Under the pieces are notes generated by a model that was not told the DNA's origin, made no database searches, and saw nothing but the letters and a program-made list of their open reading frames with translations. From NCBI GenBank assembly GCA_016931295.1, contig JAFGEZ010000021.1, positions 1-49,473 on the forward strand: 49,473 nt of DNA, in the 5' to 3' direction. Numbering within the stretch: the first letter of the stretch is position 1; every line of letters begins with the position of its first letter. A program made the translations under genes and the position numbers. This DNA comes from Candidatus Krumholzibacteriota bacterium. GTDB lineage: Bacteria; Krumholzibacteriota; Krumholzibacteriia; Krumholzibacteriales; Krumholzibacteriaceae. Positions 9,465-40,190 of this stretch are shown piece by piece.

Positions 9465-9477
9465 GGAGGCCGGGGCG

Positions 9478-11496: not shown

Positions 11497-11614
11497 AACG
11501 ACGGAGAACGCAGCACGACGCACTGCTGAACCGATGGGGACCCGCGCGGCGACTCGGGCCGGATGCCGCGCCGGGTTCCCCCCCACAACGGACCCGGCCC
11601 GAAGGAGACCTGTC

Positions 11615-13520: not shown

Positions 13521-13545
13521 AGCGGCGTGGGGAGGTGGATCGCCG

Positions 13546-14949
13546 ATGACCGGGTTCATCGACGTCGAACGGATCGAGTCGCTGCTCGCCGAGGGACGGC
13601 GTGCCGACCGGCAGACGGTCGAGGACGTGATCGAGCGCGCGGCCGAGAAGGAGGGGCTGACTCCCACGGAGACGGCAGTCCTGCTCGGCTGCGAGGACAC
13701 CGAGCTCTGGGAAGAGATCTACGCCCTCGCCCGGAAGATCAAGGAAGACATCTACGGGCGGCGGATCGTGCTCTTCGCCCCCCTCTACGTCTCGAACCTC
13801 TGCCAGAACGACTGCCTGTACTGCGCCTTCCGGCGGAGCAACGAGGAGTGCGCGCGCATCGCCCTCGGCCCCGAGGAGGTCGCCCGCGAGGTGCGCGCCC
13901 TCGAGAGCGTCGGGCACAAGCGGCTGCTCATGGTCTACGGCGAGCATCCCGCCTACGGCGTCGACTACATGGTCCAGACGATCCGCGCGGCCTACGAGAC
14001 CCGCACCCCGGACCGCCACGGGGAGATCCGCCGGATCAACGTGAACGCCGCCCCCCTGAGCGTCGAGGACTACCGGCGGCTCAAGGAGGCCGAGATCGGC
14101 ACCTTCCAGGTCTTCCAGGAGACCTACCACCCGGGCCGATACCGCGAGGTGCACCCGCCCAACACCCGCAAGGGGGATTTCGAGTGGCGGCTCTACGCGC
14201 TCCACCGCGCGCAGGAGGCCGGACTCGACGACGTCGCCGTCGGCGCCCTCTTCGGTCTCTACGACTGGCGCTTCGAGGTGATGGGCCTTCTCATGCACGC
14301 GCTCGACATGGAGCGCGTCTTCGGCGTCGGGCCGCACACGATCTCCTTCCCGCGGCTCGAGCCGGCGATCAACACGCCCTTCACCGGCTACTCGCGCTGG
14401 AAGACCTCCGACGAGGAGTTCAAGCGGCTCGTGGCCGTCTTGCGGCTCATGGTCCCCTACACCGGCCTGATCCTCACCGCGCGCGAGCGCCCCGAGCTCC
14501 GGCGCGAGTACATCCGCCTCGGCGTCTCGCAGATCGACGGCGGCACGCGGATCGACATCGGCGGCTACGGCAAGGGCCCCGCGACGGTCGAGACGGAGAA
14601 GGAGAAGCAGCAGTTCGAGATCTTCGACAACCGCTCGCTCGACGAGGTCGTGCTGGAGCTGGCGAAGACGGGCTACGTCCCCTCCTTCTGCACGGCATGC
14701 TACCGTTCGGCCCGCACCGGCGAGACCTTCATGGAATTCGCCAAGCACGGCGACATCAAGAACATGTGCCTGCCGAACGCGATTTTGACCTTCAAGGAGT
14801 ATCTCGAGGACTTCGCGTCGCCCGCAACGCGCCTCGTGGGCACGAAGCTCATCGAGGAACTGCTCAGGGGCACGGAGAACGGTCCGCGCTCGGCGCTGGA
14901 GAAGAAGATCGGCCGCATCGAGCGCGGCGAGCGCGACGTGTACTGCTAG
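13546..14949 (+). CDS. hydG: [FeFe]-hydrogenase maturase HydG (radical-SAM tyrosine lyase).
   Basis: The radical-SAM CxxxCxxC motif is CQNDCLYC. The C-terminal auxiliary-cluster motif is CTACYRS...NMC. The RBS GGGGAGG precedes the ATG at 13546. Confidence 0.85.
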   Translation: MTGFIDVERIESLLAEGRRADRQTVEDVIERAAEKEGLTPTETAVLLGCEDTELWEEIYALARKIKEDIYGRRIVLFAPLYVSNLCQNDCLYCAFRRSNEECARIALGPEEVAREVRALESVGHKRLLMVYGEHPAYGVDYMVQTIRAAYETRTPDRHGEIRRINVNAAPLSVEDYRRLKEAEIGTFQVFQETYHPGRYREVHPPNTRKGDFEWRLYALHRAQEAGLDDVAVGALFGLYDWRFEVMGLLMHALDMERVFGVGPHTISFPRLEPAINTPFTGYSRWKTSDEEFKRLVAVLRLMVPYTGLILTARERPELRREYIRLGVSQIDGGTRIDIGGYGKGPATVETEKEKQQFEIFDNRSLDEVVLELAKTGYVPSFCTACYRSARTGETFMEFAKHGDIKNMCLPNAILTFKEYLEDFASPATRLVGTKLIEELLRGTENGPRSALEKKIGRIERGERDVYC

Positions 14950-15932
14950 CGGCGCCTGATCCCCCCGCCGCGCCCGCGGCCGACCGAGAGCCCCAGCTCG
15001 TCGAGGGTCGCCGCGGTGCATTCGCGGCACGACTCGGTCGAGCCGCAGGCGGCCCGCTCGTAGATCTCGTACGCGGCCGCCGCCTCGCGCGGCGTGTAGT
15101 CGATCATGATGACGTTCGCCCCCGATCGCATCGCCCGCGCGCGGGCCTGCCGCCCGTAGACGCACATCGCCGTCGTCGAGGGCATGTGCGCCCCGGGTGC
15201 GACGAGCCGCCCGAGGGCGAGGACGCGCAGGACACGGTCGATGGGGGGCGGATCGAGATCGCCGAGGGGGGTTCCCGCCGCGGGGATCAGCGGCGAGACC
15301 GAGATCATGTCGTAGGGCGTTCGCGCCCAGTCGAGGATGTCGGCGGCGAGATGCTCCGCCGTCTGCCCGGGAAGCCCCACGATGTTCCCGCTCCCCGTCT
15401 CGTACCCGAGGGCGAGGAGGTCGTCGATGCAGCGGCGGCGGTTCTCCCAGCTCATCCCGGGGTGGAGCGTGCCGTAGAGCTCGCGGTCGGCCGCCTCGAG
15501 CTTGAGGAGATACCGGTCGGCGCCGGCCTCGCGCCACGCCCGGTAGACCTCCCGCGGCCATTCGCCCACCGAGAGGGTCACGGCGACGTCGAACCGCTCC
15601 TTGATCGCCGCGACCGTCTGTCCGAGGCCCTCGACGTCGAGACCGGGATGCTCCCCCGACTGCAGGACGATCGTGCGGAAGCCGTCCGCCGCGGCGCAAC
15701 CGGCCCGTTCGATCACCGTCTCCCAGGAAAGGTCGTAGCGGCTGACGAGATCGTTGTCGCAGCGCAGCCCGCAGTAGGCGCAGCGGCCGACGCAGCGGTT
15801 GGAGAACTCGACGATCGCGCGGAGGTGGACGACGTCGCCGTGGACGCGGCGGCGCTCGCGGTCGGCGCGGGCGCAGAGTCCGGCGGTCGCCTCAGCGTCG
15901 TCCAGGAGCCTGATGATCTCGCGCTCGTCCAT
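14946..15932 (-). CDS. hydE: [FeFe]-hydrogenase maturase HydE (radical SAM, BioB-like).
   Basis: The radical-SAM motif is CVGRCAYC, followed by a biotin-synthase-like TIM barrel of 328 aa. The gene converges on hydG with overlapping stop codons. Confidence 0.85.
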   Translation of the reverse strand: MDEREIIRLLDDAEATAGLCARADRERRRVHGDVVHLRAIVEFSNRCVGRCAYCGLRCDNDLVSRYDLSWETVIERAGCAAADGFRTIVLQSGEHPGLDVEGLGQTVAAIKERFDVAVTLSVGEWPREVYRAWREAGADRYLLKLEAADRELYGTLHPGMSWENRRRCIDDLLALGYETGSGNIVGLPGQTAEHLAADILDWARTPYDMISVSPLIPAAGTPLGDLDPPPIDRVLRVLALGRLVAPGAHMPSTTAMCVYGRQARARAMRSGANVIMIDYTPREAAAAYEIYERAACGSTESCRECTAATLDELGLSVGRGRGGGIRRR

Positions 15933-16810: not shown

Positions 16811-18760
16811 CTACGCAGCGCCTCCCGTGCGCTTCGAGTACTGGTACATGAAGACGCTCAGTGCGGCCAGCATGACGATCGCGACGATCTCGCCGGCGTT
16901 CGCGCCGTAGGAGACGGCGAGGAAACGGTCCCACTTGAGGGCGGCGATCACCGCGGCGACGACCCCGGCGATCGAGCCGCCGGCGATGAACCCGCTCGCC
17001 ACGAGGATGCCCCGCTCCTTCCGTTCCTTGGCCGTCTTCTCCACGCGCGAGGACCGCCCGACGAACCAGGAGACGATCCCGCCGAGGAGCACCGCCGTGT
17101 TGAGCTGGATCGGCAGGTACATCCCGAGCGCGAAGGCGAGGGCCGGCACGCCGCTCATCGCGAGGATCACCGATATGATGACGCCGAAGGAGAAGAGGAT
17201 CCACTGCACGCCCGCCTCGGGCCCCATCAGCCCGTAGATGATCTCCTTCATCGCCGAGGCCTGGGGCGCCGGCATCTCGAGCGAGCCGAGCTCGTAGGTG
17301 TTCGCGAGGAGCATCATCGCCAGGGCGCAGAAGACGGCCGAGACGAGGATGCCGACGAACTTGTACGTCTGCTGCCTGCGCGGCGTCGCCCCGATCCAGT
17401 AGCCGATCTTGAGATCGGTGGCGAAGGCGCCCGCGACGGCGAGCGAGGTGCAGACGACCCCGCCGATGATCATCGCCACGAACATCCCCGGCTTCCCGGA
17501 GAGACCGATGCGGGTGAGGATCACGCTCGTGATGATCAGCGTGGCCAGGGTCATCCCCGAGACGGGGTTGGTCCCGATGAGCCCGATGGCGCGCGCGGCG
17601 ACCATCGTGAAGAGGAAGGAGATCCCCAGGGCGATGAGGACGCCGATCGTGGCGACGAGGGAATTCGCCACCCCGCCCCGGAAGAAGAGCCACAGGCAGA
17701 CGGCGATCGCGACGATGCCGATGAGGACGTCGCGCATGTGCATGTTGCGCTCGGTCCTGATCTCCTCGTGCTCCTCCCTGCGGCCCGCGGCGATCCCCCT
17801 GATGCCGAGCGCGAAGCTCTGTCCGATCGAGGGAAGGGAACGGACGATCCCCATGAGGCCCGCCCCGGCGATGCCCCCGATCCCGATCAGGCGGACGTAC
17901 TCCACGAAGATGTCGTCGACGCTCATCCCGGCGACGGCCGTCCCGCCCGCGACGAACCCGCCGATGTAGTGGACGAGGGGAACGAGGACGAGGAAGGAGA
18001 GGAAGGAGCCCGCGGCGATGATCGACGCGTACTTGATCCCGACGATGTACCCCAGGCCGACGATCGCGGAGAGCCCGTCGATGCGGAAGGCCATCGAGAA
18101 GCGCTCCTCGATCCACCGACCGACGCCGACGGCGTGGAAGGTGATGATCTCCCGCCAGAAGCCGAAGGTGAGGATGCAGAGATCGTAGACGAATCCGACG
18201 ACGGCCGCCCAGACGAGGGTGACGGCCTGCTGCCCGGCACTCTGCCCGGCCACGAGGATCTCGGTGGTGGCCATCGCCTCGGGGAAGGGGAGCTTGCCGT
18301 GCTCGTTCACCATCAGGTAGTTGCGCAGCGGCACGATGAAGAGCACGCCGAGGCAGCCGCCGAAGAAGGCCGTGAGGAAGATGTGCCAGAATGAGACATC
18401 GACGTCGAGCATGTAGAGCGCGGGGATCGTGAAGACCGCGCCCGCCACCACGGCGCTCGACGCGGCGCCGACCGACTGGATGATGACGTTCTCGAGGATC
18501 GTGTTCTTGCGCGCGAAGAGGTTCGCGAGGCCGATCGCCAGGATGGCGATCGGGATCGCGGCCTCCATCCCCTGCCCCGTCTTGAGGGCGAGGTAGGCCG
18601 AGGCGAGCGAGAAGACGATCGCCATGACGACGCCGATCGCGAGCGAACGGACGGTCACCTCGAAGGGGCTCGCCGACGCCGGGACGATCGGAAGGTAGGT
18701 CTCGCCGGCTGCGAGCTCCCGGTAGGCTTCCGGGCGCAACTTCGTCGGGGTCTCTGACAT
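16811..18760 (-). CDS. Oligopeptide transporter of the OPT family, a polytopic membrane protein.
   Basis: 649 aa with about 16 hydrophobic helices. The length and pattern fit OPT, for example ...IQSVGAASSAVVAGAVFTIPALYML.... Confidence 0.8.
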   Translation of the reverse strand: MSETPTKLRPEAYRELAAGETYLPIVPASASPFEVTVRSLAIGVVMAIVFSLASAYLALKTGQGMEAAIPIAILAIGLANLFARKNTILENVIIQSVGAASSAVVAGAVFTIPALYMLDVDVSFWHIFLTAFFGGCLGVLFIVPLRNYLMVNEHGKLPFPEAMATTEILVAGQSAGQQAVTLVWAAVVGFVYDLCILTFGFWREIITFHAVGVGRWIEERFSMAFRIDGLSAIVGLGYIVGIKYASIIAAGSFLSFLVLVPLVHYIGGFVAGGTAVAGMSVDDIFVEYVRLIGIGGIAGAGLMGIVRSLPSIGQSFALGIRGIAAGRREEHEEIRTERNMHMRDVLIGIVAIAVCLWLFFRGGVANSLVATIGVLIALGISFLFTMVAARAIGLIGTNPVSGMTLATLIITSVILTRIGLSGKPGMFVAMIIGGVVCTSLAVAGAFATDLKIGYWIGATPRRQQTYKFVGILVSAVFCALAMMLLANTYELGSLEMPAPQASAMKEIIYGLMGPEAGVQWILFSFGVIISVILAMSGVPALAFALGMYLPIQLNTAVLLGGIVSWFVGRSSRVEKTAKERKERGILVASGFIAGGSIAGVVAAVIAALKWDRFLAVSYGANAGEIVAIVMLAALSVFMYQYSKRTGGAA

Positions 18761-18946
18761 GCCGTGTCCTTTCGGTTACGCGGTGCGCTGATCCGGTGTC
18801 ACCGGGTAAGGATAGCCGCCGGAACCGCGGCGGTCAAATGTTTCGGCGGCCGGCGGGCGATCCGGAAATCGTGCGGCAAAACGAAAAAAACGCTTTACTC
18901 GCGTGGGTGTTTCTCCCTATACCGGAATCAGAAAGGAGGTACGTCC

Positions 18947-19150
18947 ATGAAATGGAACCCGGTCGACTGGATCGCCTATATCCTGGTGATCATCGGGGGA
19001 CTCAACTGGGGGCTGTGGGGCGTCGGGCACTGGAACCTCGTCAAGATCATCCTTGGACGAGTGCCGGTCCTCGAAACGATCGTCTACATCCTCGTGGGAC
19101 TCTCCGCGCTGTACCTCATCGTCGTCAGACCGCACCGAAAGACCGCCTGA
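18947..19150 (+). CDS. DUF378 family small membrane protein.
   Basis: The 67-aa product MKWNPVDWIAYILVIIGGLNWGLWGVGHWNLVKIILG has the IIGGLNWGL signature. The RBS AAAGGAGG precedes the ATG by 7 nt. Confidence 0.6.
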   Translation: MKWNPVDWIAYILVIIGGLNWGLWGVGHWNLVKIILGRVPVLETIVYILVGLSALYLIVVRPHRKTA

Positions 19151-19315
19151 TCGTCTGCGGCCGGCCGTGCCGGCCACGGAACGGGGGATGCATCACCCCC
19201 GTTCCCGTTTCTCTCCTCCGGGCCCGGGAAAATTGATTTACTTCCCTCCCGCCATCGGGCATCATCGCACCGTTCCGCGACGATCCGCACACCCCGCCCG
19301 AAGGGAGCAGAATCG

Positions 19316-21391
19316 ATGAGAACCGCACCAGGAACAACCCGTCTTCTCCTGCTCGCCCTCTGCGGAACGGCCCTCCTCGCCGCGTCGGCGGCGGGCGGCG
19401 TCTTCACCGCCGGGGACGCCCTCTCCGTGCGCCGCGCGGGCGCGGCGGCGATCGCCCCGGACGGCCGCAGGATCGCCTTCACCGTCTCCGTGCCCCGCGA
19501 GGCGGGCGAGGAGCCGGGGGGCGCCTGGAGCGAGCTGTGGCTCGCCTCGACGGCCGACGGCGAGCTCCGCCCCTTCGTCACCGGGAAGGTCAACGCCCGG
19601 TCACCCCGCTTCAGCCCCGACGGGACGCGCATCGCCTTTCTCCTCGCCCGCGGCAAGGAGGCGAAGACCCAGGTCTGGACGATCCCCGTCGACGGCGGCG
19701 AGGCGAAGCAGGCGACCGATTCGCCGACGGGCGTCATCGACTTCCGCTGGCACCCCGGCGGCGACCTGATCGCCTGGATCGCGACCGAGCCGAAGCCGGC
19801 GCGCGAGAAGACGCTCGAGGAGAAGGGGTACGGGTTCATCTTCTTCGAGGAGAACCTCCAGCACCGCAACCTCTACATCGGCGCGGCCGGCGGCGGCGGC
19901 GAGGCGCGGCGACTCACCGACGGCGCGACGGTCTGGAGCTTCGAGTTCGCCCCCTCCGGCGAAACGATCGCGGCGGCGATCTCGCCGAAGAACCTCGTCG
20001 ACCACTCGTACATGTTCCGCACGATCCATGTCGTCGACGTCGAGACGGGCGCGATGCGCCGCCTCACCGACAATCCCGGCAAGCTGGGCAACTTCGCGTT
20101 CAGCCCCGACGGCCGCATGCTCGCCTACGCCGCGGCGATCGAGCGGAAGGACCACGCGGTCAGCCAGGCGTTCGTGATCGACGTCGCGGGGGGCGAGGCG
20201 CGCAATCTCACCGAACCGGGCTTCCGCGGCCACGTGACCCGCGTGGGCTGGCGCGACCGGTCGACGGTCTGCTTTCTCGCCGCCGAGGGCGCCTGGAACA
20301 CGCTGAACACCGTTCCGGCCGCCGGCGGCAGGCGATCGACGATCCTCGACGGGAAGGAGATCGGCCTCGTCTTCGCTGCGCCCGACGTCACCGCCGACTT
20401 CCGGCATTTCGCGTTCACCGCCTCCTCGCCGGGGATCCCGGGAGACCTCTGGCACTGGAAACGCGGGGCGAGGAAGCCGACGCGGCTCACCACGCTCAAC
20501 CCCTGGATCGACGAACGCGACCTGGGCCGCCAGGAGGTCGTGCGGTACGCCGCCCGCGACGGCCTCGAGATCGAGGGGATCCTCGTCTACCCCGTCGGAT
20601 ACGAGGAGGGCCGGCGCTACCCGCTCGTCGTGTCCGTCCACGGCGGCCCCGAATCGCACTACACGAACGGCTGGCTGACGGGCTACTTCAATCCCGCGCA
20701 GGTGCTCGCCGGCAGGGGCTACGTCGTCTTCTATCCCAACTACCGGGCGAGCACGGGGTACGGGCTCGAGTTCGCGCTCGCCGGCTACATGGACGCGGCG
20801 GGACGCGAGTTCGACGACATCGCCGACGGGATCGACTGGCTGGTCGGCGAGGGGATCGCCGACCGCGACCGCGTGGGGCTCGGCGGCGGATCGTACGGCG
20901 GGTACGCCGCGGCGTGGTTCGCCACCTACTACACGGACCGCGTCCGCGCCGTCTGCATGTTCGTCGGGATCAGCGATCTCGTCTCCAAGCGGAGCACGAC
21001 GGACATCCCCTGGGAGGAGCTCTACGTCCACTCGGGAAAGAAGCTCGAGGAGATGTGGACGTTCAGCCTCGAGCGCAGCCCGGTCTTCCACGCGCACAAG
21101 AGCCGGTCGGCCGTCCTCATCCTCGGGGGCGCGGCCGATCCGCGCGTGCATCCCTCGCAGAGCCTCGAGTTCTACCGGCGCCTCAAGATGAACGACCACC
21201 CCGCCGTCCGCCTCGTGCAGTACCCCGGCGAGGGCCACGGCAACCGGAAACAACCGGGGCGCATCGACGTATTGTACAGGCACCTGGACTGGTACGACTG
21301 GTACGTGAAGAACCTGCAGCCCCTCGACGGCCCGCTGCCGCCGCTCGACATCAGCGAGCGCTACGGGCTCGACCTCGAAGAAGCGGAATAA
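19316..21391 (+). CDS. S9 family serine peptidase (prolyl-oligopeptidase / acylaminoacyl-peptidase type) with an N-terminal beta-propeller and a signal peptide.
   Basis: The catalytic GGSYGG nucleophile elbow is present. The N-terminus has TolB-like propeller repeats (SPDGTRIAF). Signal peptide LLLLALCGTALLAASAAGG. Confidence 0.8.
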   Translation: MRTAPGTTRLLLLALCGTALLAASAAGGVFTAGDALSVRRAGAAAIAPDGRRIAFTVSVPREAGEEPGGAWSELWLASTADGELRPFVTGKVNARSPRFSPDGTRIAFLLARGKEAKTQVWTIPVDGGEAKQATDSPTGVIDFRWHPGGDLIAWIATEPKPAREKTLEEKGYGFIFFEENLQHRNLYIGAAGGGGEARRLTDGATVWSFEFAPSGETIAAAISPKNLVDHSYMFRTIHVVDVETGAMRRLTDNPGKLGNFAFSPDGRMLAYAAAIERKDHAVSQAFVIDVAGGEARNLTEPGFRGHVTRVGWRDRSTVCFLAAEGAWNTLNTVPAAGGRRSTILDGKEIGLVFAAPDVTADFRHFAFTASSPGIPGDLWHWKRGARKPTRLTTLNPWIDERDLGRQEVVRYAARDGLEIEGILVYPVGYEEGRRYPLVVSVHGGPESHYTNGWLTGYFNPAQVLAGRGYVVFYPNYRASTGYGLEFALAGYMDAAGREFDDIADGIDWLVGEGIADRDRVGLGGGSYGGYAAAWFATYYTDRVRAVCMFVGISDLVSKRSTTDIPWEELYVHSGKKLEEMWTFSLERSPVFHAHKSRSAVLILGGAADPRVHPSQSLEFYRRLKMNDHPAVRLVQYPGEGHGNRKQPGRIDVLYRHLDWYDWYVKNLQPLDGPLPPLDISERYGLDLEEAE

Positions 21392-23555: not shown

Positions 23556-24683
23556 CTATTCCCCGATCGTGGAGAGGACGTCGATCGTCTGGAGGACGTC
23601 GCGGCGGGTAACGATCCCGATGACGGCGCCGCGGTCGTCGACGACGGGAAGCCGGTCGCTCCCCCGGCGCATGACGAGCCCGACGAGGCGCTCGGCCGGA
23701 TCGAGCCGGTGGACGGCGCTCGGGGCGACGCTCCGGTTCATGATCTCCGCCGCCGTCGTTCCCGGCCACGATTCGCGCGGCACGCCCTTGAGATCGCCGA
23801 GGGTGACGATGCCGACGAGCAGGCCGTCCCGGACGACGGGGAAGGAGGAGGCGTGGTGCCGGAGAAAGAAGTCGTCGACCAGCGTCGCGAGATCCGTCGA
23901 GACGTCGACGGTGACATGGTCGTCCCGCATGAAGTCCGCCACCCGGAGACCCTGCAGCGACTCCTTGAACGCGACCATCACGTAGCCGCTCCGCGCGGCC
24001 TGGCGGAGAAAGAAGCCGATGAAGATGAGCCACATCCCGCCGATCAGCGAGCCGTACCAGGCGAAGGTGAACAAACCGAGCCCCATCAGCAGCAGGGCGA
24101 AGAACCCGCCGATCCGGGAGGCGATCCGCGTCGCGCGTTTCAGGTCGCCCGTCCTCCACCAGATGACCGAGCGGAGTATCCGGCCGCCGTCGAGCGGAAA
24201 CCCCGGCACGAGGTTGAAGACGAGCACGCCGAGGTTGACGTCCGCGAGCGACCGCGCGAGCACGGAGACGGCCGGCACGGCGTCCGCGACGAGCGAGATC
24301 CCGTAGAAGACGATCGCGAGCAGCAGGGTCATGAGCGGGCCGGCGGCGGCCATGCGCATCTCGAGGACCGGGTCGTCGACCTCGCGCTCCATCTGCGCCA
24401 CCCCGCCGAACATGAAGAGGGTGATGCGCCTGATCGGCAGCCCGGCGCGCACCGCGACGATGGAGTGGCTGAACTCGTGCAGGAGGATCGAGGTGAAGAG
24501 GAGGATCGCCGTGAAGAAACCCATCAGCCACCGGCCGGAAGGCGAGAAGAGGCCGGGGTAGTTCTCCGGGTAGTAGCCGTTGGCGAAGGTCCAGGTGATG
24601 AGACCGAGGATGAGGACCCAGCTGATGTTCAGTTCGACCGGGATCCCCCGTAGCGAGAAGAGCGTGACGTTTCTTCGCAGCAC
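23556..24683 (-). CDS. M50 (site-2 protease) family zinc metalloprotease with a C-terminal CBS-domain pair.
   Basis: HEFSHS is the HExxH motif. FNLVPGFPLDGGRIL is the second zinc/LDG motif. Tandem CBS-like repeats follow (VADFM...VVRDGLLVGIVT, VAPS...VVDDRGAVIGIVT). A GTG start at 24683 follows GGGGGAGG. Confidence 0.75.
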   Translation of the reverse strand: MLRRNVTLFSLRGIPVELNISWVLILGLITWTFANGYYPENYPGLFSPSGRWLMGFFTAILLFTSILLHEFSHSIVAVRAGLPIRRITLFMFGGVAQMEREVDDPVLEMRMAAAGPLMTLLLAIVFYGISLVADAVPAVSVLARSLADVNLGVLVFNLVPGFPLDGGRILRSVIWWRTGDLKRATRIASRIGGFFALLLMGLGLFTFAWYGSLIGGMWLIFIGFFLRQAARSGYVMVAFKESLQGLRVADFMRDDHVTVDVSTDLATLVDDFFLRHHASSFPVVRDGLLVGIVTLGDLKGVPRESWPGTTAAEIMNRSVAPSAVHRLDPAERLVGLVMRRGSDRLPVVDDRGAVIGIVTRRDVLQTIDVLSTIGE

Positions 24684-24714: not shown

Positions 24715-25074
24715 TCACACCGCTCCGGATCCGGCGTACCGCACGAACCGGTTGCCTTCGTCGACGTCGATGAACAGGGGATCGACCTCTCCCGACGACC
24801 AGGTGAAGGCCATGATATCGACGCGGTCGCCCTCGGTGACGAGATGCGCCGCTGCGCCGTTGATACAGACGACACCGCTCCCGCGCTCGCCCCGTATGAC
24901 GTAGGTCTGCAGGCGGTTGCCGTTCGTGCGGTCGACGACGAGGACGTTCTCGTGCTCGCTGAGATCCGCCTTCTCGATGAGATCCTCGTCGATCGTGATC
25001 GAGCCGACGTACCGCAGGTCGGCCTGCGTCACGGTGGCCCGGAGGATCATCGATTTCAGCATCATCCGTTTCAT
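24715..25074 (-). CDS. panD: Aspartate 1-decarboxylase (PanD) homolog, divergent at K9 and H11.
   Basis: The 119-aa product reads [24 protein letters not shown]|SITIDED...[27 protein letters not shown]. It keeps the Gly-Ser self-cleavage site, R54, T57 and Y58. The position normally occupied by KSKIH reads KSMIL. Confidence 0.8.
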
Positions 25075-25159
25075 CGACTTCGCTCCCCGCGGCGGAGCCC
25101 CTCCGCCGCACACGGCAAATATAGTACAATTGGCCGTCCGTGGAAAGGGATCGGGCGCC

Positions 25160-26881
25160 CTAGAGCTTCATGCCGGGTTTCTCGGTGAGATGCCTGACGA
25201 AGCGGTTCTTTTCGTCGACGAGGATGTTGCTGAATGAATGGTCGCTCCCGTCGGACCACGCGAAGGCCATGATCCCGATCTCGTCCCCCGCGCGCACGTG
25301 CCTCGACACGGCTCCCCCCGCGGCGATCACGCCGCTCCCGGGCTTTCCGCGGACGGCGAAGGTCTCGATCCGCGAGCCGTTCGTCGCGTCGACGATCAGC
25401 ACCTTTTCCATCGGGGCGATGTCGCCGTAATCCATGAGCTCGCCGTCGATGACGAGGCAGTCGATCTCCTCCGGCCGCTCCTCGGTCACCCACGCCTTGT
25501 GGATTTTCGATTTGACCACGAGGCGCTCCTCGATCCTCGAGACGATGAACTTCGACTTGCCCGCCGGCGTGCGGGGGATGTCGTCGACGATCGAGAAGTT
25601 GACGCGGAAATCCGCGCCGATCTCCTTCCGGATCCTGTCCCGCAGCATCTCCTTGTGTTCGTCGCGCCAGCCGGGCCCGGGGACGATCCGGAAGGTGATC
25701 CCCGCGCGGTCGCGCTGGTCGATCTGGAAGCGGTCGATCCCCGGCACGTATCGCGACAGCCAGGACCAGAAGAAGCCGCCGATCGACCTGCCGTCGGCGG
25801 TGACGACGGTGTCGTAGGTGCGCCCCTCGATCCGCTCCAGGAGAGGCAGCCCGCGTCCGCAGGGGCAGCTCCGCTCGGTGGGGACGGCGAGATCCCCCGT
25901 CCGGTAGCGGATGAAGGGCATGTAGTAGTCCAGCAGGTCGGTGACGACGATCTCTCCCACCTCCCCGCTCTGCGCCGGCCGTCCGCTCTCGTGGATGATC
26001 TCGACGTGGAAGAGATCGCTGAAGACGTGCAGCCCCTTGTGCTCCTCGCACTCCTGGGCGACGTTCGAGAATTCCCTGATCCCGTAGCGGTCGAAGACGG
26101 GAGCGCGGCACACGTCCTCGATGGCCGCCTTCTGCTCGGGGTAGAGGCGCTCGCCGCTCGTCACGACGGCGCGGGGGGCCGGAACGTGCAGGAGGCCCCG
26201 CTTGCAGAAGTCGGCGAAGAGGGCGAGGGCCGACGGATACCCGACGACGAGATGCGGCCGGAACCGGCGCAGGAGCCGGGCGTAGCGGCGCATCGAGTCG
26301 GGCGACATGTCGAGGCTCGAGAGGAAGAGGACGTTGTTGAACCAGTTCCTCATGCCCTCGGCGAACCGCTCGCGGGAGGAGACGTCGAGGCGCCGTCCCC
26401 AGAGGACCGCGTGGCGGTCGCCGATGTCGACGCCCGCCCACCGGTAGCCGCGCAGGGTGTTCGCACGGCGCACGGGGCCGGCGGCGCGGTCTCGCCAGAA
26501 GAACATCGGCTCGCCCGTCGAACCGCCCGTGCTCGAGGGATAGCCCCGCCGGTACGGATCCTCGGTGACGAGGCGGCGTTTCTCGCGGCGGACGATCTCC
26601 CTGTCGAGGAAGGGCAGTCGGGCGAAGTCGCCGAGGGACTGGATGCCTCCCGGCGCGATCCCGTTCTCGCGGAAAAGGTCGCGGTAGTAGGGAACGTGGA
26701 TCGATGCCTTCTCGAGGAGCGCGGCGAGCTTCCGCCAGCGGATCTCGTCGAGCTCCTCGCGCGGCAGCCACTGCGAACGCTCCAGCTCGCGCAGCCGGTC
26801 GAGGACGCGGTCGCCGCGGATGCCGCGGTAGAGCGGATAGACGACGTTCCTCACGAATGACGGATGAAGATGCGGCAGCAT
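25160..26881 (-). CDS. PaaK-type (phenylacetate-CoA ligase / F390-synthetase family) adenylate-forming enzyme fused to a C-terminal PanD-like domain.
   Basis: The N-terminal ~450 aa carry the ANL P-loop [10 protein letters not shown] and a PaaK-like core. The C-terminal 117 aa (nt 25163-25513) align to PanD: [10 protein letters not shown]...[27 protein letters not shown]...[11 protein letters not shown]. The Gly-Ser site is replaced by Asp-Cys and Y58 by Phe. The RBS is GGGGGAG. Confidence 0.75.
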
Positions 26882-27147
26882 GCCGTTTCGCTCCCCCCTG
26901 CGCCGGTGCGGCCGGCGATCGCAACGGTCGGCGAGCGCCCGCCGGAGCGCTCCGGAAGCAGTATTCTACTGCATGGGCGCGCGTCTTCCAATTCGAATCT
27001 TTCCGTTTCCTGGACCGGCCGCCCGGCGGAAGACGCGGCGCGCCGTCTTCATCGGGGTTTGCATGCCGGGGGCGGACGGGGTATCATCGCCGCGACGGCC
27101 GGCTGCGGCGCCGTCCCGCCGGGCGGCGTCCAGGACGAAAGGAACGG

Positions 27148-28440
27148 ATGAGCGGCACGATCGACACGAGCGAGGCGCATGCCCGCGAACTCGACGCGGC
27201 GGACCCCCTGGCCCGGTTCCGCGAACGCTTCGAGATCCCGCCGGGGACGATCTACATGGACGGCAACTCTCTCGGCCTCCTCTGCCGCGAGGCGGCTGCG
27301 GGGATCGAGGGGGCCCTCGACGACTGGCGGCAACTCGCGATCCGCGGCTGGCTCGACGGCGATCCGCCGTGGTTCACGTGGGGCGAGCGACTCGGAGCGG
27401 CGGCGGCCCCCCTCGTCGGCGCGGCCCCCGACGAAGTCGTCGCGACCGGAACGACGACACTCGACATCCACGCCCTCGTCTCATCCTTCTACCGGCCCGA
27501 GACGGGACGGACGCGCATCGTCGCCCTCGAACCGGACTTTCCCACCGACATCTACGCCCTGCGCGGCCAGATCGCCCTCCGCGGACTCGATCCCGACGAA
27601 CACCTCGTCCTCGTCTCCGCGGCGGCGGACGGCATCGTCGACGAGGACCTCATCGCGGCGGCCATCGACGAACAAACCTCGCTCCTCTGGGTTTCCGCCG
27701 TCCTCTACCGGAGCGGCCAGCTCCTCGACCTCCCGCGGCTCGCGCGGGAGGCGAGGGCGCGGGGCGCCCTCGCCGGCTTCGACTGCAGCCACGCCGTCGG
27801 CGCCGTCCCGCATCGCTTCGACGAGTGGGAGGTGGACATGGCCGTCTGGTGCAGCTACAAGTACCTGAACGGCGGACCGGGATCGCCGGCCTTCCTCTAC
27901 CTCAACCGCCGCCACGCCGATCGCGGCCCCGGTCTGCCGGGGTGGTTCGGCTGCGTGAAGGAGCGGCAGTTCGACCTCTCGCCCCGCTTCGAACACGAAC
28001 GGGCCGCCGGCGGGTGGCAGATCTCGTCCCCCTCCGCCCTCGGCATGGGCGCGGTCGAGGGATCGCTCGGCGTGATCCGCGAGGCGGGGATCGAGGCGAT
28101 CCGCAGGAAATCGCTGCGTCTCACCGGCTATCTCGTCGAGCTCGCCGACACCCTCCTCGCCCCGGAGCCATGCCGGTTCAGGGTGGTCACGCCCCGCGAG
28201 GCCTCGCGCCGCGGCGGGCATATCGCCCTCGCGCGCGACGAGGAGGCGCTCCGGATCAAGGAGGCGCTCGTCGGACGCGGGATCGTCACCGATTTCCGGC
28301 CGCCGGACATCATCCGGATCGCGCCGATCGCCCTCTACAACACATTCGAAGAGGTCCGGCGCGTCGTCCTCGCGCTGCGCGAGATCGTCGAGACGCGCGA
28401 ATACGAACGCGTTCCCGCCGGCCGCCAGGCGATCACCTGA
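27148..28440 (+). CDS. kynU: Kynureninase (PLP-dependent).
   Basis: 430 aa with TIYMDGNSLG near the N-terminus and FDCSHAV...WCSYKYLNGGPG (PLP-lysine region), typical of kynureninase. Confidence 0.8.
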   Translation: MSGTIDTSEAHARELDAADPLARFRERFEIPPGTIYMDGNSLGLLCREAAAGIEGALDDWRQLAIRGWLDGDPPWFTWGERLGAAAAPLVGAAPDEVVATGTTTLDIHALVSSFYRPETGRTRIVALEPDFPTDIYALRGQIALRGLDPDEHLVLVSAAADGIVDEDLIAAAIDEQTSLLWVSAVLYRSGQLLDLPRLAREARARGALAGFDCSHAVGAVPHRFDEWEVDMAVWCSYKYLNGGPGSPAFLYLNRRHADRGPGLPGWFGCVKERQFDLSPRFEHERAAGGWQISSPSALGMGAVEGSLGVIREAGIEAIRRKSLRLTGYLVELADTLLAPEPCRFRVVTPREASRRGGHIALARDEEALRIKEALVGRGIVTDFRPPDIIRIAPIALYNTFEEVRRVVLALREIVETREYERVPAGRQAIT

Positions 28441-32904: not shown

Positions 32905-35556
32905 TTACCTGCTCAGTTCGATGCGTCGCAGCGAGGCCGCGCGCGCCTGGCGGTCGGCGGCGGCGAGAACCATGAGGCGCTGGCGCGGATGCAGCCCGGG
33001 GTGCGCATCGAGCCAGGTTGCCGCCGCCTCGGCCGCTCCCGGGTAGTACCGCGTGCCGAGCGCCGCCCCGAGCCACGACCGCGGGAAGAAGATGTCCCCG
33101 GTGCGGCGCACCTCCTCGAGAAGGGCGAGGGCCGTGTCGACCTCCGCCGGCGCGCCCGGTCCGAGGGGATGGTGCAGGAGACCGAGCCCCTCGATGACCC
33201 ACGGCTCGCGGCGGCGTCCCTCGGCGGTGCGGATCGCGGCGGCGAAAAGGGCGCGGTCCGCCGCCTCGGGCGATGCGGCCTGCCGGACGAACCGGAAACG
33301 CCGGCGGAGCTCGTCGTTCTCGATCGCGGCCTCGCGCCGGTCGAGGATGCCGCGCCACCCCTCGACGCCCCGGACGGCGAGCTCGAGGGCCGTCGCCGCC
33401 AACTCGCGCTCCGAGAGCACGAACCCCCCTATCGGCTCTTCCCCCGCCTCGACACGCCAAAGGAGATCGACCCCCCCGGCGGTCGTCGCGACCGCGCGGA
33501 GGGCGCGGAAGAGGGCCAGCTTCACCGCAGGCGGCGCCTCGTCGTCGAGACGTGCCATGATCGTTCCGTCGAGAAGGATGGCGAGCCGTGTCCGGTCGTC
33601 GATCGACAGGAAGAGCCGGCTCGTCTCGGCGGCGGCGTCGAGCGCGGCCTGGAGGACGATCTCATCGCGCTCCTCCCCGATTTGCGCCGCGCAATAGCCG
33701 AGGAATTCCCCCGGGGCCGGATTCCCGCCCTCGAGCATCCCCTCGCGCAGATGGACGAGCAGGGCGAGCCGGTGGAGGGGCGCCTCGGGCACGGCGCCGC
33801 CGAGCGCGGCGGCGATGCTTCCTTCGTCCATCGGAAAGAAGCCGAGCCCCTCGAGGTTCGCGTCGGGCAGCACGAGCTCCGTCGCCTCGATGAGCCGCGT
33901 CTCCGCCCGCCCCCCCGCGCGCAGGCGATTCGTGAATTCCAGGCCGAAGGCCCGGTCGGTCGGGAACCACGGGATGGTGCGGACCTCGAAGGCCTGCGGC
34001 CAATCGATCCCCCGCCCCCGCGGATCGAGGGAGACGGCCTCGATGGCGGTGAAGCCGCCCCCCTCCCGTCCGGCGAGACGCACCTCGACGACGGGACGCC
34101 CGGGCTCCTCCACCCACGCCCGGCTCCAGGCGGCGAGATCGGCCCCGGCGAGGGAATCGAGGACGGCGACGAGATCGGGCCACGAGGCCGTGCCCCAACT
34201 GAACCGGCGGAGATAGCGGCGAAGCCCCTCGCGCAGGACCTCCTCCCCGACGAGTTCCTCGAGCTGGCGCAGCATCACCGGGGGCTTGTGGTAGATGACG
34301 TCCCCGTAGATCTCCCCCGCCCGCGCCATGTTCTCGAGGGGCTGGCGGATCGGGTTGGTCCCCGCCGTGCGCTCGATGTCGTCGAGGGCGCGGCGGTGCG
34401 CCGCCGCGAAGAGGAGCTGGTGATCGACGTCCGGAAACGCCGGCGCGACGATCCGGTCGGCCATGAACTGCGCGAAGGCCTCCTTGAGCCAGACGTCGTC
34501 GAACCACGGCATCGTCACGAGGTCGCCGAACCACTGGTGCGCCGTCTCGTGGGCGACGAGGGAGGCGCGCCCGAGCTCCTCTCGCGCCGTGGCCCCCTCG
34601 TCGAGGAGGATCCGCGAGGCCCGGTAGAGGATCGCCCCGGGGTGCTCCATCCCGCTGTAGGGGAAGACGGGCAGGAGGACGAGATCGAGCTTGTCGAAGG
34701 GATAGGCGATTTCCGTGTACTCCTCGACGCCAACGAGGGCCGCCGCGGTCAGGTCGAGGAGGGCGGGCAGGTTGCGGGCGATCCGCGCCGAGTCGGGCTC
34801 GAGGTGGAAGACCCCGATCTGCCGGCCGCCGCGCTCCCCCGCCTCGCGCCGGAACATCCCCGCGGCGAAGGAGAAGAGGTAGGTCGAGATGGGCGGCGTC
34901 TCCCCGAAGCGCACGAGACGCTTATCGCCCGCCGCGTCGTTTGAGCCGGCCGGCGCGTTGGCGACGGCCGTCCAGCCGGCAGGGATCTCGAGCGAGAGCG
35001 TGAACCGGCCCTTGAGATCGGGCTGGTCGAGGCAGGGCAGGGCGAAGCGCGCCCGGTCGGGAACGAAGAGGGTGTAGAGGTGGTCGCGCTCGCGGTGGAG
35101 CGGCCGTTCGTCCGGGGTGAACGAGATCTCGACGCGATGCTCCCCGTCGCCCGGCGGCAGCGGCACGAGGATGTGCTCGCGGAGATGGAGAACGGGAACG
35201 GAGTCGCCGTCGACGGAGACGGCATGGACGGCCGGGCCGGCGAAATCGAGGACGAGGGTGTCGAGTCCCTGCGCGCGGAAGCGGATCCCGACCCGCCCGG
35301 CGATCTCCCCCTCGGCCGGTATCCGGTAGAAGACGGCGTAGCGGAGACCGGAGACCGCCGCGCTCCTGGCGGCCGCGAGTTCGGCCGACACGCCCGACTC
35401 GATCCGCGCGGCCGCGGCGCAGGCCGCCGGCACGTGCACGCCGCCGGCATACGCCGCCAGAAGAAGAATGATGCAGGCGATGCCCGCCCGCGATCCCGGC
35501 CCGGCCCCTCCGCTGCATCGATTTTCACGGGATGGAGAAATCCAGGTTGCCGACAT
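32905..35556 (-). CDS. M1 family aminopeptidase (aminopeptidase N-like) with a signal peptide.
   Basis: HEXXH-18-E is present: VAHETAHQWFGDLVTMPWFDDVWLKEAFAQF. The exopeptidase motif GMEHPG (GxMEN variant) is present. The N-terminal hydrophobic segment is IACIILLLAAYAGG. Confidence 0.8.
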   Translation of the reverse strand: MSATWISPSRENRCSGGAGPGSRAGIACIILLLAAYAGGVHVPAACAAAARIESGVSAELAAARSAAVSGLRYAVFYRIPAEGEIAGRVGIRFRAQGLDTLVLDFAGPAVHAVSVDGDSVPVLHLREHILVPLPPGDGEHRVEISFTPDERPLHRERDHLYTLFVPDRARFALPCLDQPDLKGRFTLSLEIPAGWTAVANAPAGSNDAAGDKRLVRFGETPPISTYLFSFAAGMFRREAGERGGRQIGVFHLEPDSARIARNLPALLDLTAAALVGVEEYTEIAYPFDKLDLVLLPVFPYSGMEHPGAILYRASRILLDEGATAREELGRASLVAHETAHQWFGDLVTMPWFDDVWLKEAFAQFMADRIVAPAFPDVDHQLLFAAAHRRALDDIERTAGTNPIRQPLENMARAGEIYGDVIYHKPPVMLRQLEELVGEEVLREGLRRYLRRFSWGTASWPDLVAVLDSLAGADLAAWSRAWVEEPGRPVVEVRLAGREGGGFTAIEAVSLDPRGRGIDWPQAFEVRTIPWFPTDRAFGLEFTNRLRAGGRAETRLIEATELVLPDANLEGLGFFPMDEGSIAAALGGAVPEAPLHRLALLVHLREGMLEGGNPAPGEFLGYCAAQIGEERDEIVLQAALDAAAETSRLFLSIDDRTRLAILLDGTIMARLDDEAPPAVKLALFRALRAVATTAGGVDLLWRVEAGEEPIGGFVLSERELAATALELAVRGVEGWRGILDRREAAIENDELRRRFRFVRQAASPEAADRALFAAAIRTAEGRRREPWVIEGLGLLHHPLGPGAPAEVDTALALLEEVRRTGDIFFPRSWLGAALGTRYYPGAAEAAATWLDAHPGLHPRQRLMVLAAADRQARAASLRRIELSR

Positions 35557-37467: not shown

Positions 37468-37678
37468 ATCGGCATACCTCTCGTGATCGATGGGGAATTC
37501 CGTTCTCGCGGCGCCGGAACGCCGGCCCGCCGGACGATCAATCCATAGCATAAAATCAGCCAATATCGCCGGGAACGGCCGCGATGCCCCGTGCGTCGCG
37601 CGGATGGCGGCGGGAACGACGAGGGTTGCCACGATCGCCCGCATCGGCTATCCTCCGTATATAGCGGATGGAAAATAC

Positions 37679-40099
37679 ATGTCACGTATCCACGGATCGC
37701 ACCATGCGCGCGCCGTGATCGCAACGATCGCCGCGGCGGGCGCGCTTCTCGCCGCGCCGTCCGGCGCCGCGGAGATCACGGTCGTCTACCGGTTCGGCGA
37801 GCCCGCCCGCGTCGACGCGGGCGGGGGATTCACGCGGATCGAGTTTTCCTCGACGGTGCAGAGCGGCCGGCCGGGCGAGCCGGGGTACCCCTTCCGCGGC
37901 GCGGCGATTTTGCTGCCCCCCGGCGAGGGGGTCTCCGGCGTCCGGGTCGAGCGGCGCGGATGGCGCGAGCTCGAGGGGTCGCATCTCCTCCGCCCGATCC
38001 AGATCCCCGTGCCGATCCGATCGAGCGCCTCTCGCGAGCGGCCGTTCCTGTTCGACGCGGCCGCCTACGGCGTCGACCGGTGGGTCCATCCCCCCGAACC
38101 CCGTTTCACGACGCAGTTCTTCCGGGGCCACGCGATCGCGGTCGGCTGCATCAGCCCGCTCGCCTACCGCCCGAAAAACCGCGCGGTCGGCTGGTACGGC
38201 GAGATCGAGATCACGATCGAGACGGCGCCCGCCGCGGCGGCGGCCGCCGCCCTCGCGCTGATGCGCACCGATCCCGAAACGATCCGGCAGCTCGCGGCGA
38301 TCGTCGACAATCCGGAGGCCGCGCCCGGGGGCGGCGACACGTTCCTCGCGGCGAGCGGCCCCGACGACTACGAGTACCTCATCGTCACGCGCGACAGCCT
38401 GCGCGACGCGCTCGTCCCCTTCCGCGATCACCACACCCGGCGGGGCATGCGAACGCGCATCCGCTCCGTCGAGCAGATCGAGGCCCTCTTCCCGGGCGTC
38501 GACACGGCCGAGCGGATCCGCAACGCGATCATCCACGAATACGTGAACAGCGGGATCACGCACGTGCTCCTGGCGGGGGATTCGGACGGGCCGCCGGGCA
38601 ACGTCAAGCCCGTCCCCCACCGAAGCTTCTACTGCCACGTGCCGGACGAGCACGATGAGGAGTTCAACCTCCCGGCCGACGTCTACTACGCCGCCCTCGA
38701 CGGCGACTGGAACGCCGACGGCGACGGCCGGTGGGGCGAGGAGGGCGAAGAGGACTTCTTCCCCGAGATCGCCGTCGGGCGGGCGTGCGTCAGGTACCCG
38801 TCCGACGCGGCGCGGTTCGCCGACAAGGCGATGCTCTACGGATCGGCGCCGGTCGCCGGGCAGGTCCGCCGCGCCCTGCTCCTCGGCGAGTTGCTGAAGG
38901 ATCACCCGGAGACATGGGGCGCCGACGAGCTGGAGGAGCTCGTCGGCGCGTGCACGCACAACGATCTCGCGACGGCCGGCATACCGCCCGACTGGGAGAT
39001 CGCGACCCTCTTCGATCGCGACGAGTACTGGAACAAGGAGGACGCGTGGCCGATCATCAACGGCGGCACCCACTGGGTGGCCCACTCGGGCCACTGCATG
39101 ACCGACGCCGCCCTGAAATTCACCTCGTCCGACGTCCGGGACACGAAATTCACCAACGACGGCGTGAGCGCGAACCTCGTCATCATCGCCACGGTGGGCT
39201 GCTACGCGGCCGCGTTCGACAACCGCAACCCGCTGGGCGACTACGGCTTCGACTGCATCGCCGAGAAGATGGTGGACATCCGTCACTGCGCCGTCGCGTT
39301 CTTCGGCAACTCGCGCGCCGGCTTCCTCGATCCGGGCACCACGAGCAGCACCTCCCATCTCTACCTGCGGGAGTTTTTCGACGCCGTCTTCGGCGAGGGC
39401 TATCACACCCTCGGGGACGCGGTACGGCGCTGCAAGGAGGAGATCGTTCCCTGGATCGCCCTCTCCGACACCTCGCGGGCCGACGAATTCCGGTACGACT
39501 ACTACCAGCTCACCCTGCTCGGCGACCCCGCCCTCGACGCGTGGACCGACACGCCGCGGGCGATGAGCGTCACGCATCCCGCCTCGATCGATCGCTGGGA
39601 GGAATCGATGGTGGTTCTGGCCCCGAACGTCCCCGGCGCGCTGGCCGTCCTCTATCATGACGGCGTCGCCTACGCCCGGGGCGTCGGCACTCCCCTCGGC
39701 TATATCCTCCTGCGCCGGACGAGGCCCTTCCCCGACTCGCTCGTCGAGCTCGAGCTCGACGTGAGCGCGCACAACCGCTACACCTATCGCGACACGATCG
39801 CGATCACGGGCACGACCGGGATCGAAGACGCGCCGCCCGCGGCCAGCCTCGCCACGAACGCGCCGAATCCCTTCAATCCCTCGACCGTGATCCGCTTCAC
39901 GCTCGACACCGAACGGTTCGTCGACCTGCGGGTCTATGACGTGGCCGGGCGCGAGGTCGACCGGCTCGTCGCCTGCCGTCTCCCGGCCGGCCCGCACGAC
40001 GTGACCTGGCGGCCGAGTCACCTCTCGAGCGGCATCTACCTCTACGTGCTCCGCGCCGGCGATCGCCTGCTGAGCGGGAAGGCCGTCCTGGTCCGATGA
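37679..40099 (+). CDS. Peptidase C25 (gingipain-like cysteine protease) family protein with a T9SS C-terminal sorting domain.
   Basis: The His and Cys boxes read WVAHSGHC and IIATVGCYAAAFD. YEYLIVTRDSLRDALVPFRDHH resembles the gingipain N-terminus. The CTD is NPFNPSTVIRFTL...GIYLYVLRAGDRLLSGKAVLVR. Signal peptide AVIATIAAAGALLAAPSGAA. Confidence 0.75.
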   Translation: MSRIHGSHHARAVIATIAAAGALLAAPSGAAEITVVYRFGEPARVDAGGGFTRIEFSSTVQSGRPGEPGYPFRGAAILLPPGEGVSGVRVERRGWRELEGSHLLRPIQIPVPIRSSASRERPFLFDAAAYGVDRWVHPPEPRFTTQFFRGHAIAVGCISPLAYRPKNRAVGWYGEIEITIETAPAAAAAAALALMRTDPETIRQLAAIVDNPEAAPGGGDTFLAASGPDDYEYLIVTRDSLRDALVPFRDHHTRRGMRTRIRSVEQIEALFPGVDTAERIRNAIIHEYVNSGITHVLLAGDSDGPPGNVKPVPHRSFYCHVPDEHDEEFNLPADVYYAALDGDWNADGDGRWGEEGEEDFFPEIAVGRACVRYPSDAARFADKAMLYGSAPVAGQVRRALLLGELLKDHPETWGADELEELVGACTHNDLATAGIPPDWEIATLFDRDEYWNKEDAWPIINGGTHWVAHSGHCMTDAALKFTSSDVRDTKFTNDGVSANLVIIATVGCYAAAFDNRNPLGDYGFDCIAEKMVDIRHCAVAFFGNSRAGFLDPGTTSSTSHLYLREFFDAVFGEGYHTLGDAVRRCKEEIVPWIALSDTSRADEFRYDYYQLTLLGDPALDAWTDTPRAMSVTHPASIDRWEESMVVLAPNVPGALAVLYHDGVAYARGVGTPLGYILLRRTRPFPDSLVELELDVSAHNRYTYRDTIAITGTTGIEDAPPAASLATNAPNPFNPSTVIRFTLDTERFVDLRVYDVAGREVDRLVACRLPAGPHDVTWRPSHLSSGIYLYVLRAGDRLLSGKAVLVR

Positions 40100-40190
40100 C
40101 CGGACGGCGACGCGCGTCGCCGCGGCGCCCCACCGTCCGCGGCGGCTGCATGTCATTCGCGGGTCGCGGGCGCGCGGCGCGCCGGCCCCG

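Follow-up and report, generated by a model that had tools for sequence, protein, structure and literature searches.

The stretch of DNA considered here, called the window below, is the 49,473-nucleotide contig JAFGEZ010000021.1 from a Candidatus Krumholzibacteriota bacterium (assembly GCA_016931295.1). It carries two adjacent genes which both encode relatives of the aspartate decarboxylase PanD. The first gene (25160..26881) codes for a protein of 573 amino acids in which a CapK/PaaK-type adenylate-forming ligase is fused to a C-terminal PanD-like domain; the open reading frame (ORF) matches PF02261 and, weakly, an AMP-binding profile. The second gene (24715..25074) codes for a stand-alone PanD of 119 amino acids. 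In the following the stand-alone PanD is called S and the PanD-like domain of the fusion is called F, and residues are numbered as in canonical PanD. The pair, all its parts and the next gene downstream lie on the minus strand. Fusion and S are separated by a spacer of 85 nucleotides (25075..25159), in which a GGGGAG ribosome-binding site can be read 8 nucleotides ahead of the ATG of S. The positions, the spacing and the shared strand are as given in an earlier reading of the DNA made without database searches (the sequence-only reading). The next gene, found by Pfam, codes for an M50 peptidase with CBS domains (23556..24683); its start is placed, with the help of homologs of 373-381 amino acids, at a GTG 31 nucleotides beyond the S stop codon. 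It follows S in most related loci (exceptions are L009, L025 and L035) and is the probable third gene of the operon, with a possible functional link to the pair.

The ligase part of the fusion comprises amino acids 1-450 (25532..26881) with the N- and C-terminal ANL subdomains, as seen from matches to PDB sequences and from Foldseek. F comprises amino acids 451-573 (25163..25531). It passes the PF02261 cut-off of 25 with 83.7 bits (match over amino acids 454-561, E 1.2e-23), which bears out the proposal that the C-terminal domain is PanD-like, and it misses the equivalog level of TIGR00223 (67.3, cut-off 106). S and F are 42% identical, close to the value of about 45% previously estimated by eye. 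An AlphaFold2 (AF2) model of the fusion has a mean predicted local distance difference test (pLDDT) value of 85.7 overall and of about 90 across F.

The same architecture, with about 573 amino acids, is found widely in other genomes, in more than 110 protein clusters at 50-78% identity, and a frameshift or a chimera is therefore ruled out, a concern which the sequence-only reading had raised itself. Identity to the window, averaged over 15 paired loci, is 60% for F, 59% for the ligase and 73% for S; F is as conserved as the ligase and S more so, which indicates purifying selection on both copies; neither of them is decaying. The explanation that the fusion is a misassembly joining two genes, or that F is a decaying pseudogene remnant, is refuted by these numbers together with the invariance of K9, H11 and R54 in F. 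F has Asp or Glu at position 24 throughout and folds confidently in the AF2 model. Where decay has occurred, as in the loci L016 and L028 described below, it is readily recognized, and an artefact is practically out of the question.

By its profile matches S is a member of the PanD family, although one without the strictly conserved Lys9 and His11. It scores 135.9 bits against PF02261 (cut-off 25; E 7e-40) and 125.8 against the panD model TIGR00223, above the cut-off of 106. It aligns gap-free, residue 1 to 1, with the Mycobacterium tuberculosis PanD (2c45), to which it is 57% identical, and this gives K7 S8 M9 I10 L11; KSMIL (25042..25056) stands in register where canonical PanD has KSKIH. 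The Gly24-Ser25 cleavage site, the precursor of the pyruvoyl group, is intact within VGSIT (24994..25008), and so are R54, T57, Y58 and N72. The residues which had been read from the sequence, including the register at positions 9 and 11, are all correct. The column statistics for S are based on 120 cluster representatives, all at least 71% identical to the query. Position 9 is Met in 116, Val in 3 and Ile in 1, never Lys; position 11 is Leu, Met, Ile, Phe or Val, never His; position 86, where canonical PanD has Ile, is Asp in 120/120. On the other hand G24, S25, R54, T57, Y58, N72 and A74 are kept in every one of the 120, and G73 in 119. For comparison, PanD-like proteins in general were clustered at 50% identity; of the 146 representatives 142 have K9 and 138 have H11, and the four without K9 include two of the S type. 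With such near-universal residues the substitutions in S exceed chance. One S variant (P0249; M9/H11/D86) keeps H11, and it is also encoded directly downstream of a fusion. A further divergent class of PanD-like proteins has E9/R11 (P0277 and P0371) and is unrelated to the S and F types; P0277 also has D24-S25, H58 and S86.

F presents the opposite picture. Its column statistics are based on 118 fused domains, in all of which K7, K9 and H11 are found, with S8 in 116 and I10 in 114; R54 is present in 117, the remaining one being a gap. The residues around the cleavage site are lost. Position 24 is Asp in 115 and Glu in 3, never Gly, and position 25 is Cys in 89, Gly in 20 and Ser in 9. Tyr is never found at position 58, which is Phe or another residue, and Asn is never found at position 72, which is Cys, Ser, Gly or Thr; T57 is mostly kept. 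Position 86 is Ile, Ser or Gly (Ser in 35 and Gly in 25 of the 118). In the window the KSKIH motif is encoded at 25499..25513 and IDCLV, with Asp-Cys replacing Gly24-Ser25, at 25451..25465; these features and Y58F had been noted before and are confirmed, and F in addition has N72G and is without Y22. Judged from these columns F is a PanD-fold pseudoenzyme, predicted not to process itself. It had been suggested that Cys25 might be the source of a pyruvoyl group. This is unlikely, because position 25 varies between Cys, Gly and Ser, with Cys in no more than 89/118, and because G24, N72 and Y58 are gone. A stand-alone F-like protein (P0247) was seen on a short contig.

Neither S nor F alone carries the full set of PanD residues; S and F together do. 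What this may mean depends on how the residues are distributed over the subunits of PanD, in which the active sites are located between adjacent subunits of the tetramer (PMC6969166). Substrate analogues touch Lys9*, Pyr25, Arg54*, Thr57 and Tyr58, where the asterisk denotes the other subunit, and Lys9 is described as pairing with the leaving alpha-carboxylate of the substrate (PMC3314653). Arg54 is also assigned in trans, and Ala74/Ala75 in cis, in PMC6969166, and a structure of PanD T57V has a malonate bridging Lys9 and Arg54 (PMC3975893). Papers on the Escherichia coli PanD describe Thr57, Tyr58 and Asn72 as contacting Gly24/Ser25 and do not invoke the neighbouring chain (including PMC3975893 and PMC4410942). 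From the fold, a double-psi barrel, strand 25-28 would pair, within one chain, with strands 54-61 and 69-72. The cis or pyruvoyl side should therefore consist of G24, S25, T57, Y58, N72 and A74/A75, and the trans wall of K9, H11 and R54, probably together with I86.

When this published partition is combined with the residue patterns, S keeps the pyruvoyl half-site and F keeps the trans half-site; the two paralogs are devoid of different parts of an interface site. Judged from the sequences, an interface made from the cis side of S and the trans side of F would hold every canonical residue. The sequence-only reading had pointed out that the two copies have complementary active-site residues, and this holds with strict conservation in 118 F and 120 S sequences. 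It had, however, placed K9/H11 on one subunit and R54/T57/Y58 on the neighbour. The published structures put K9 and R54 together, opposite Pyr25, T57 and Y58. The complementarity survives this correction and is cleaner with it.

The most economical reading of these patterns is that aspartate is decarboxylated by an obligate hetero-oligomer of S and F, a pyruvoyl-dependent enzyme attached to a glycan-modifying ligase, such that decarboxylation would be coupled to the ligase reaction; we give this reading somewhat less than an even chance. S would supply the self-cleaving Gly24-Ser25, and with it the pyruvoyl group, as well as T57, Y58, N72 and A74/A75, with Y58 as the proton donor. F would supply in trans the Lys9/His11/Arg54 wall and so complete the site which is remodelled in S. 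If S and F alternate around the ring (S-F-S-F), half of the interfaces would be complete canonical sites, and the other half would be remodelled and non-catalytic. F may perhaps also have to act in trans for the S zymogen to mature.

Several observations weigh against this reading. S keeps the trans residue R54 in 120/120 and has gained the invariant D86; neither would be needed if the trans wall of S were dead, and a homotetramer of S fits these two facts equally well. Position 86 of F is Ile, Ser or Gly, so that the canonical Ile is not kept throughout. The assignment of T57 and Y58 to the cis side rests on a limited literature, namely the asterisks of one paper together with our reading of the fold topology, and one paper on PanD engineering places strand 52-59 among the "adjacent subunit" strands. 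If Y58 acts in trans, F with its Phe58 could not complete the site. The substrate of the ligase is assigned purely by association, the GT4 and CE4 genes discussed below are not adjacent to the pair in the window, and one fusion (L022) has no S within 3.7 kb downstream.

The most serious competitor is a self-sufficient homotetramer of S in which K9M and H11L are tolerated or tune the activity. F would then be a dead PanD fold whose role is confined to oligomerization of the ligase, or to the binding of aspartate, beta-alanine or a dicarboxylate for sensing or substrate recruitment, and the two proteins would share a pathway and not a complex. Besides the retention of R54 and the solitary fusion of L022, it has in its favour that S scores above the curated panD equivalog cut-off and that H11 is not universal, being Ser in the Francisella tularensis PanD (3oug) and non-His in 8/146 representatives. 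K9 is a different matter; it is otherwise near-universal, and its described role is to pair with the leaving alpha-carboxylate. The homotetramer also leaves unexplained why F is invariant at exactly K9, H11 and R54 while every residue of the pyruvoyl side is lost, why the changes in S at positions 9, 11 and 86 fall on strands described as belonging to the adjacent-subunit wall, and why F and S are absent together. We consider it a minority possibility, clearly behind the heteromer in probability.

The joint occurrence of F and S was followed in related loci. In the window the gene for S comes immediately after the fusion gene, and so it does in L002, L003/4, L005, L006-8, L009, L010, L011-13 and L015, which are all the loci fetched starting from either protein. 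Another 15 S/F pairs are on shared contigs, as judged by identical size of the longest contig. A metagenome scan yielded 80 loci, which were searched with a PanD profile. Where a fusion locus extends far enough downstream, a second PanD comes right behind the fusion; the exceptions are L022 and L021, the latter having merely 0.5 kb downstream of the fusion. The surroundings of 63 unfused relatives of the ligase (33-40% identity, plus L032 at 55%), out to about 6 kb, gave no PanD. A scan of genome contigs with a single protein gave one distant unfused ligase as its sole match.

Two lineages have the ligase without either PanD. In L016 (2718-4330; L028 has the same sequence) the ligase is 61% identical and has a stop codon exactly at the junction between ligase and PanD; it is followed by a decayed remnant "RLMVKSKINEAS..." (including "RLMVKSKIN"), and there is no S. 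In L032 an unfused ligase (55% identity) is found in the same methyltransferase-kynureninase-ligase synteny as in the window, with no F and no S. By the adjacency, taken together with the joint absence in these two lineages, F and S are seen to be gained and lost together. L016/L028, with its decayed PanD remnant "RLMVKSKINEASITG...", represents a natural joint loss of the two.

The ligase part itself has the motifs expected for its fold. The P-loop (A3 motif, amino acids 116-125) is encoded at 26507..26536; T118, G120, S121, T122, G123 and P125 are nearly invariant among 60 homologs. YRTGD is found at amino acids 326-330, EGRTYD at 352-357, and the A10 motif PAGKSKF is encoded at 25547..25567. 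Its PAGK includes the adenylation lysine, K442, which is nearly invariant, next to a fully invariant G441. In the same 60 homologs the A3, A7, A8 and A10 motifs are invariant or nearly so, and by these motifs the ligase looks catalytically intact. In the PDB it comes closest, in sequence as well as in fold, to PaaK1/2 and BT_0428, with about 24% identity (phmmer match to 4r1l with E 3e-31; Foldseek matches to 2y27 with E 7e-28 and to 4r1m and 2y4o, probability 1.00). Further fold matches are to 2-hydroxyisobutyryl-CoA ligase (HCL), ClxA, AjiA1 and NatL2. PF27533 (CapK_C) and PF02261 are precomputed for an identical database protein (P0001), and PF27533 is found on nearly all homologs; our local Pfam scan did not return PF27533 for the fusion, and no NCBIfam ligase model reaches its cut-off. 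An identity as phenylacetate-CoA ligase is rejected by scores of 85.8 against a cut-off of 646.3 (TIGR02155) and 105.1 against 700 (NF041878). The ligase thus belongs to the PaaK subfamily of ANL enzymes, in its CapK-type branch, and is not PaaK itself. The earlier description as a PaaK-like adenylating ligase is thus right with respect to fold and motifs, whereas an aryl-acid CoA ligase is not indicated by any curated model.

The best NCBIfam match of the ligase is the "DVU_1553 family AMP-dependent CoA ligase", below its cut-off, and the methyltransferase of L002 (5042-6028) matches the "DVU_1556 family methyltransferase" weakly and also below the cut-off; the two matches may reflect an uncharacterised conserved gene cluster of Desulfovibrio. 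There is also a sub-lineage of fusions of about 500 amino acids (L003 10001-11527, P0113; likewise P0114, P0117, P0118, P0120 and P0241) in which the C-terminal ANL subdomain is mostly deleted, while "GGK" and the F domain are kept and an S-type PanD is still adjacent. In these proteins the F domain may structurally replace the lost subdomain.

The neighbours of the ligase family point to its role. A CE4 (PgaB-like) deacetylase gene is located directly upstream of the fusion in 11 related loci, and in 8 of these a close GT4 homolog is ahead of the CE4 gene. In L009, labelled Eisenbacteria, the pair is inside a full Wzx-type exopolysaccharide cluster, without the M50 gene. In L025 (8185-11797) and L035 (1615-1893) a second, unfused CapK-like ligase follows S in the place of the M50 peptidase, and L025 has one or two more CE4 deacetylases after it. 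The nearest same-strand ORFs flanking the unfused relatives are most often GT4 (16/55), then Wzy, Wzx, CapD-like dehydratases and CE4. In Vibrio cholerae the PaaK/CapK-like protein VpsH attaches glycine to the carboxylate of GulNAcA in the lipid-linked repeat unit of the polysaccharide VPS (PMC13463779; 2026). The GT4, CE4, Wzx and Wzy neighbours together with VpsH suggest decoration of a sugar with an amino acid, and not activation of an aromatic acid.

In the window the pair is flanked upstream by a kynureninase gene (27145-28440, plus strand) and a methyltransferase gene, and downstream by the M50/CBS peptidase gene. The order in L002 (compared over 6074-9979), a locus of the closed genome CP070727.1, is methyltransferase, kynureninase, GT4, CE4, fusion. 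In comparison the window (26882-28440) is without GT4 and CE4, with just 263 nucleotides between kynureninase and fusion, and the pair persists without its customary glycan partners. A pathway resembling that of bacillithiol or mycothiol, which would also combine a GT4, a deacetylase and a ligase, was considered and set aside; the matches of the GT4 to BshA and MshA are sub-threshold. Polysaccharide modification is preferred because the GT4 best matches glycosyltransferases of PEP-CTERM and exopolysaccharide systems, the CE4 is PgaB-like, and L009 has an exopolysaccharide cluster.

The PanC reaction also proceeds via an acyl-adenylate. One could therefore imagine a housekeeping role in pantothenate synthesis, in which S/F is the sole PanD and the ligase a non-orthologous analogue of PanC or a beta-alanine-CoA ligase; both proteins are annotated in databases as aspartate 1-decarboxylase, and a canonical PanD was not seen in the 49-kb window. 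We find this very improbable. Pfam and profile scans gave no panB or panC in the 49-kb window, so that the panB/panC context which the sequence-only reading had thought of is not there, and no panB, panC or panE is present in the window or in related loci. The conserved neighbours of the ligase family are glycosyltransferases, CE4 deacetylases, Wzx and Wzy, and PanD is never near the unfused relatives. The literature on Krumholzibacteriota and pantothenate yielded nothing of use on this point.

F begins about 10 residues past the A10 lysine (K442), and in the S/F heteromer beta-alanine would accordingly be released beside the adenylation site. The ligase would then most likely attach beta-alanine to a glycan through an amide bond. 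If it works as VpsH does, the amine of beta-alanine would attack a uronyl-adenylate, formed on the carboxylate of a uronic acid; the association with CE4 suggests as an alternative that the carboxylate of beta-alanine might be joined to a de-N-acetylated amino sugar. The same tether, about 10 residues past the lysine, would also suit an opposite order of reactions, in which the ligase attaches L-aspartate to the glycan or a carrier and S/F converts the bound aspartyl to a beta-alanyl group, or a role of F in presenting aspartate to the ligase. The residue at position 86 of F is in many cases smaller than Ile, which could enlarge the pocket, and PaaK-family proteins such as NatL2, AjiA1 and ClxA, found as fold matches, form amides and esters directly. 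The composite site, however, keeps all canonical aspartate binders, with K9 holding the alpha-carboxylate and R54 the beta-carboxylate, and an aspartyl amide would be without one of these carboxylates. We consider this alternative, in either form, improbable.

The heteromer can be extended to a ring with two kinds of interface which functions as a machine for making and attaching beta-alanine in glycan decoration. In addition to catalytic interfaces between S in cis and F in trans, those with F in cis and S in trans would have been rebuilt as product-holding sites. Arg54 of S, kept there, could bind the carboxylate of beta-alanine, and the two invariant acidic residues gained, Asp24 of F and Asp86 of S, could bind the free ammonium group; Lys9 and His11 would be dispensable there because no alpha-carboxylate remains to be bound. 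Beta-alanine would be handed straight to the active site of the ligase, and F would be the activator in trans of the S zymogen. We regard this extended version as distinctly unlikely.

Some other features of the window should be mentioned. The peptidases (S9, M1, C25 and M16) and an OPT oligopeptide transporter encoded at 16811-21391, 32905-35556 and 37490-43040 suggest a proteolytic, peptide-scavenging lifestyle, which would provide a ready supply of aspartate. At 9478-12016 (plus strand), together with 13306-14949 (plus strand) and 14946-15932 (minus strand), is a locus which looks like a sensory hydrogenase two-component system. In it a histidine kinase of the HisKA/HATPase type is joined to a domain resembling the [FeFe]-hydrogenase large subunit, with Fe-S modules; a response regulator follows, and of two radical-SAM genes nearby one has a BATS domain (HydG/HydE-like). 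The first approximately 2 kb (1-2200) have a GC content of 46% compared to about 70% for the rest of the contig, and contain an ORF (57-2183, minus strand) for a 708-amino-acid FG-GAP-repeat protein with a third-position GC of 0.45. This end may have been acquired recently by horizontal transfer, or the contig may be chimeric here.

We found no PanD paralog pair, PanD pseudoenzyme, PanD heteromer or ligase-PanD fusion described in the searchable literature, in agreement with the sequence-only reading, which knew of no PaaK-PanD fusion. The known PanD proteins (PF02261), such as those of E. coli and M. tuberculosis, have the same fold and belong to the same family as both S and F. In these homotetramers both half-sites are present on every chain, whereas here S is without K9, H11 and I86, and F is without G24, S25, Y58 and N72 and is joined to a 450-amino-acid ligase. 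The closest parallels are the deoxyhypusine synthase (DHS) and the AdoMetDC/prozyme of trypanosomatids, in which a duplicated enzyme with an interface site has likewise degenerated into co-dependent paralogs. The interface of the DHS heterodimer has one catalytic and one dead site, and AdoMetDC is a pyruvoyl enzyme whose dead paralog cannot process itself (PMC10820115). These systems are eukaryotic and have different folds, and no downstream enzyme is fused to either partner; the AdoMetDC prozyme is allosteric and donates no active-site residues, and the S/F heteromer is for its part a prediction. PanZ/PanM, which activates the E. coli PanD (PMC4410942, PMC4537548), is likewise a second protein, required for obtaining processed, active PanD, and ties beta-alanine to another metabolite pool. 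PanZ is a GNAT-fold sensor of acetyl-CoA, unrelated to PanD and confined to the Gammaproteobacteria, whereas F, a PanD paralog, would contribute catalytic residues.

With respect to the ligase, the CapK/VpsH-type ligases share the PaaK-family fold and motifs and CapK_C, and have relatives beside GT4, CE4, Wzx and Wzy genes; no described member has a decarboxylase domain or partner, and in the window the glycan genes are not adjacent. PaaK provides the closest solved structures, with the same two-subdomain ANL fold and no large N-terminal extension; there is no paa gene context around the fusion.

If the heteromer is real it is, we believe, the first bacterial PanD whose active site is complete only with the help of a degenerate paralog. 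It would be a clear example from nature of two paralogs bound into an obligate complex because they have degenerated in complementary ways, maintained throughout an entire candidate phylum, and would represent a new coupling of a decarboxylase making a precursor to the enzyme consuming its product. The model predicts a beta-alanyl (or aspartyl-derived) decoration of exopolysaccharides in Krumholzibacteriota and their relatives, undescribed so far, and the poorly understood CapK-type ligases would gain a candidate substrate. Finally, the automatic annotations "aspartate 1-decarboxylase" and "phenylacetate-CoA ligase" mislead reconstructions of pantothenate and CoA metabolism in these uncultured lineages.

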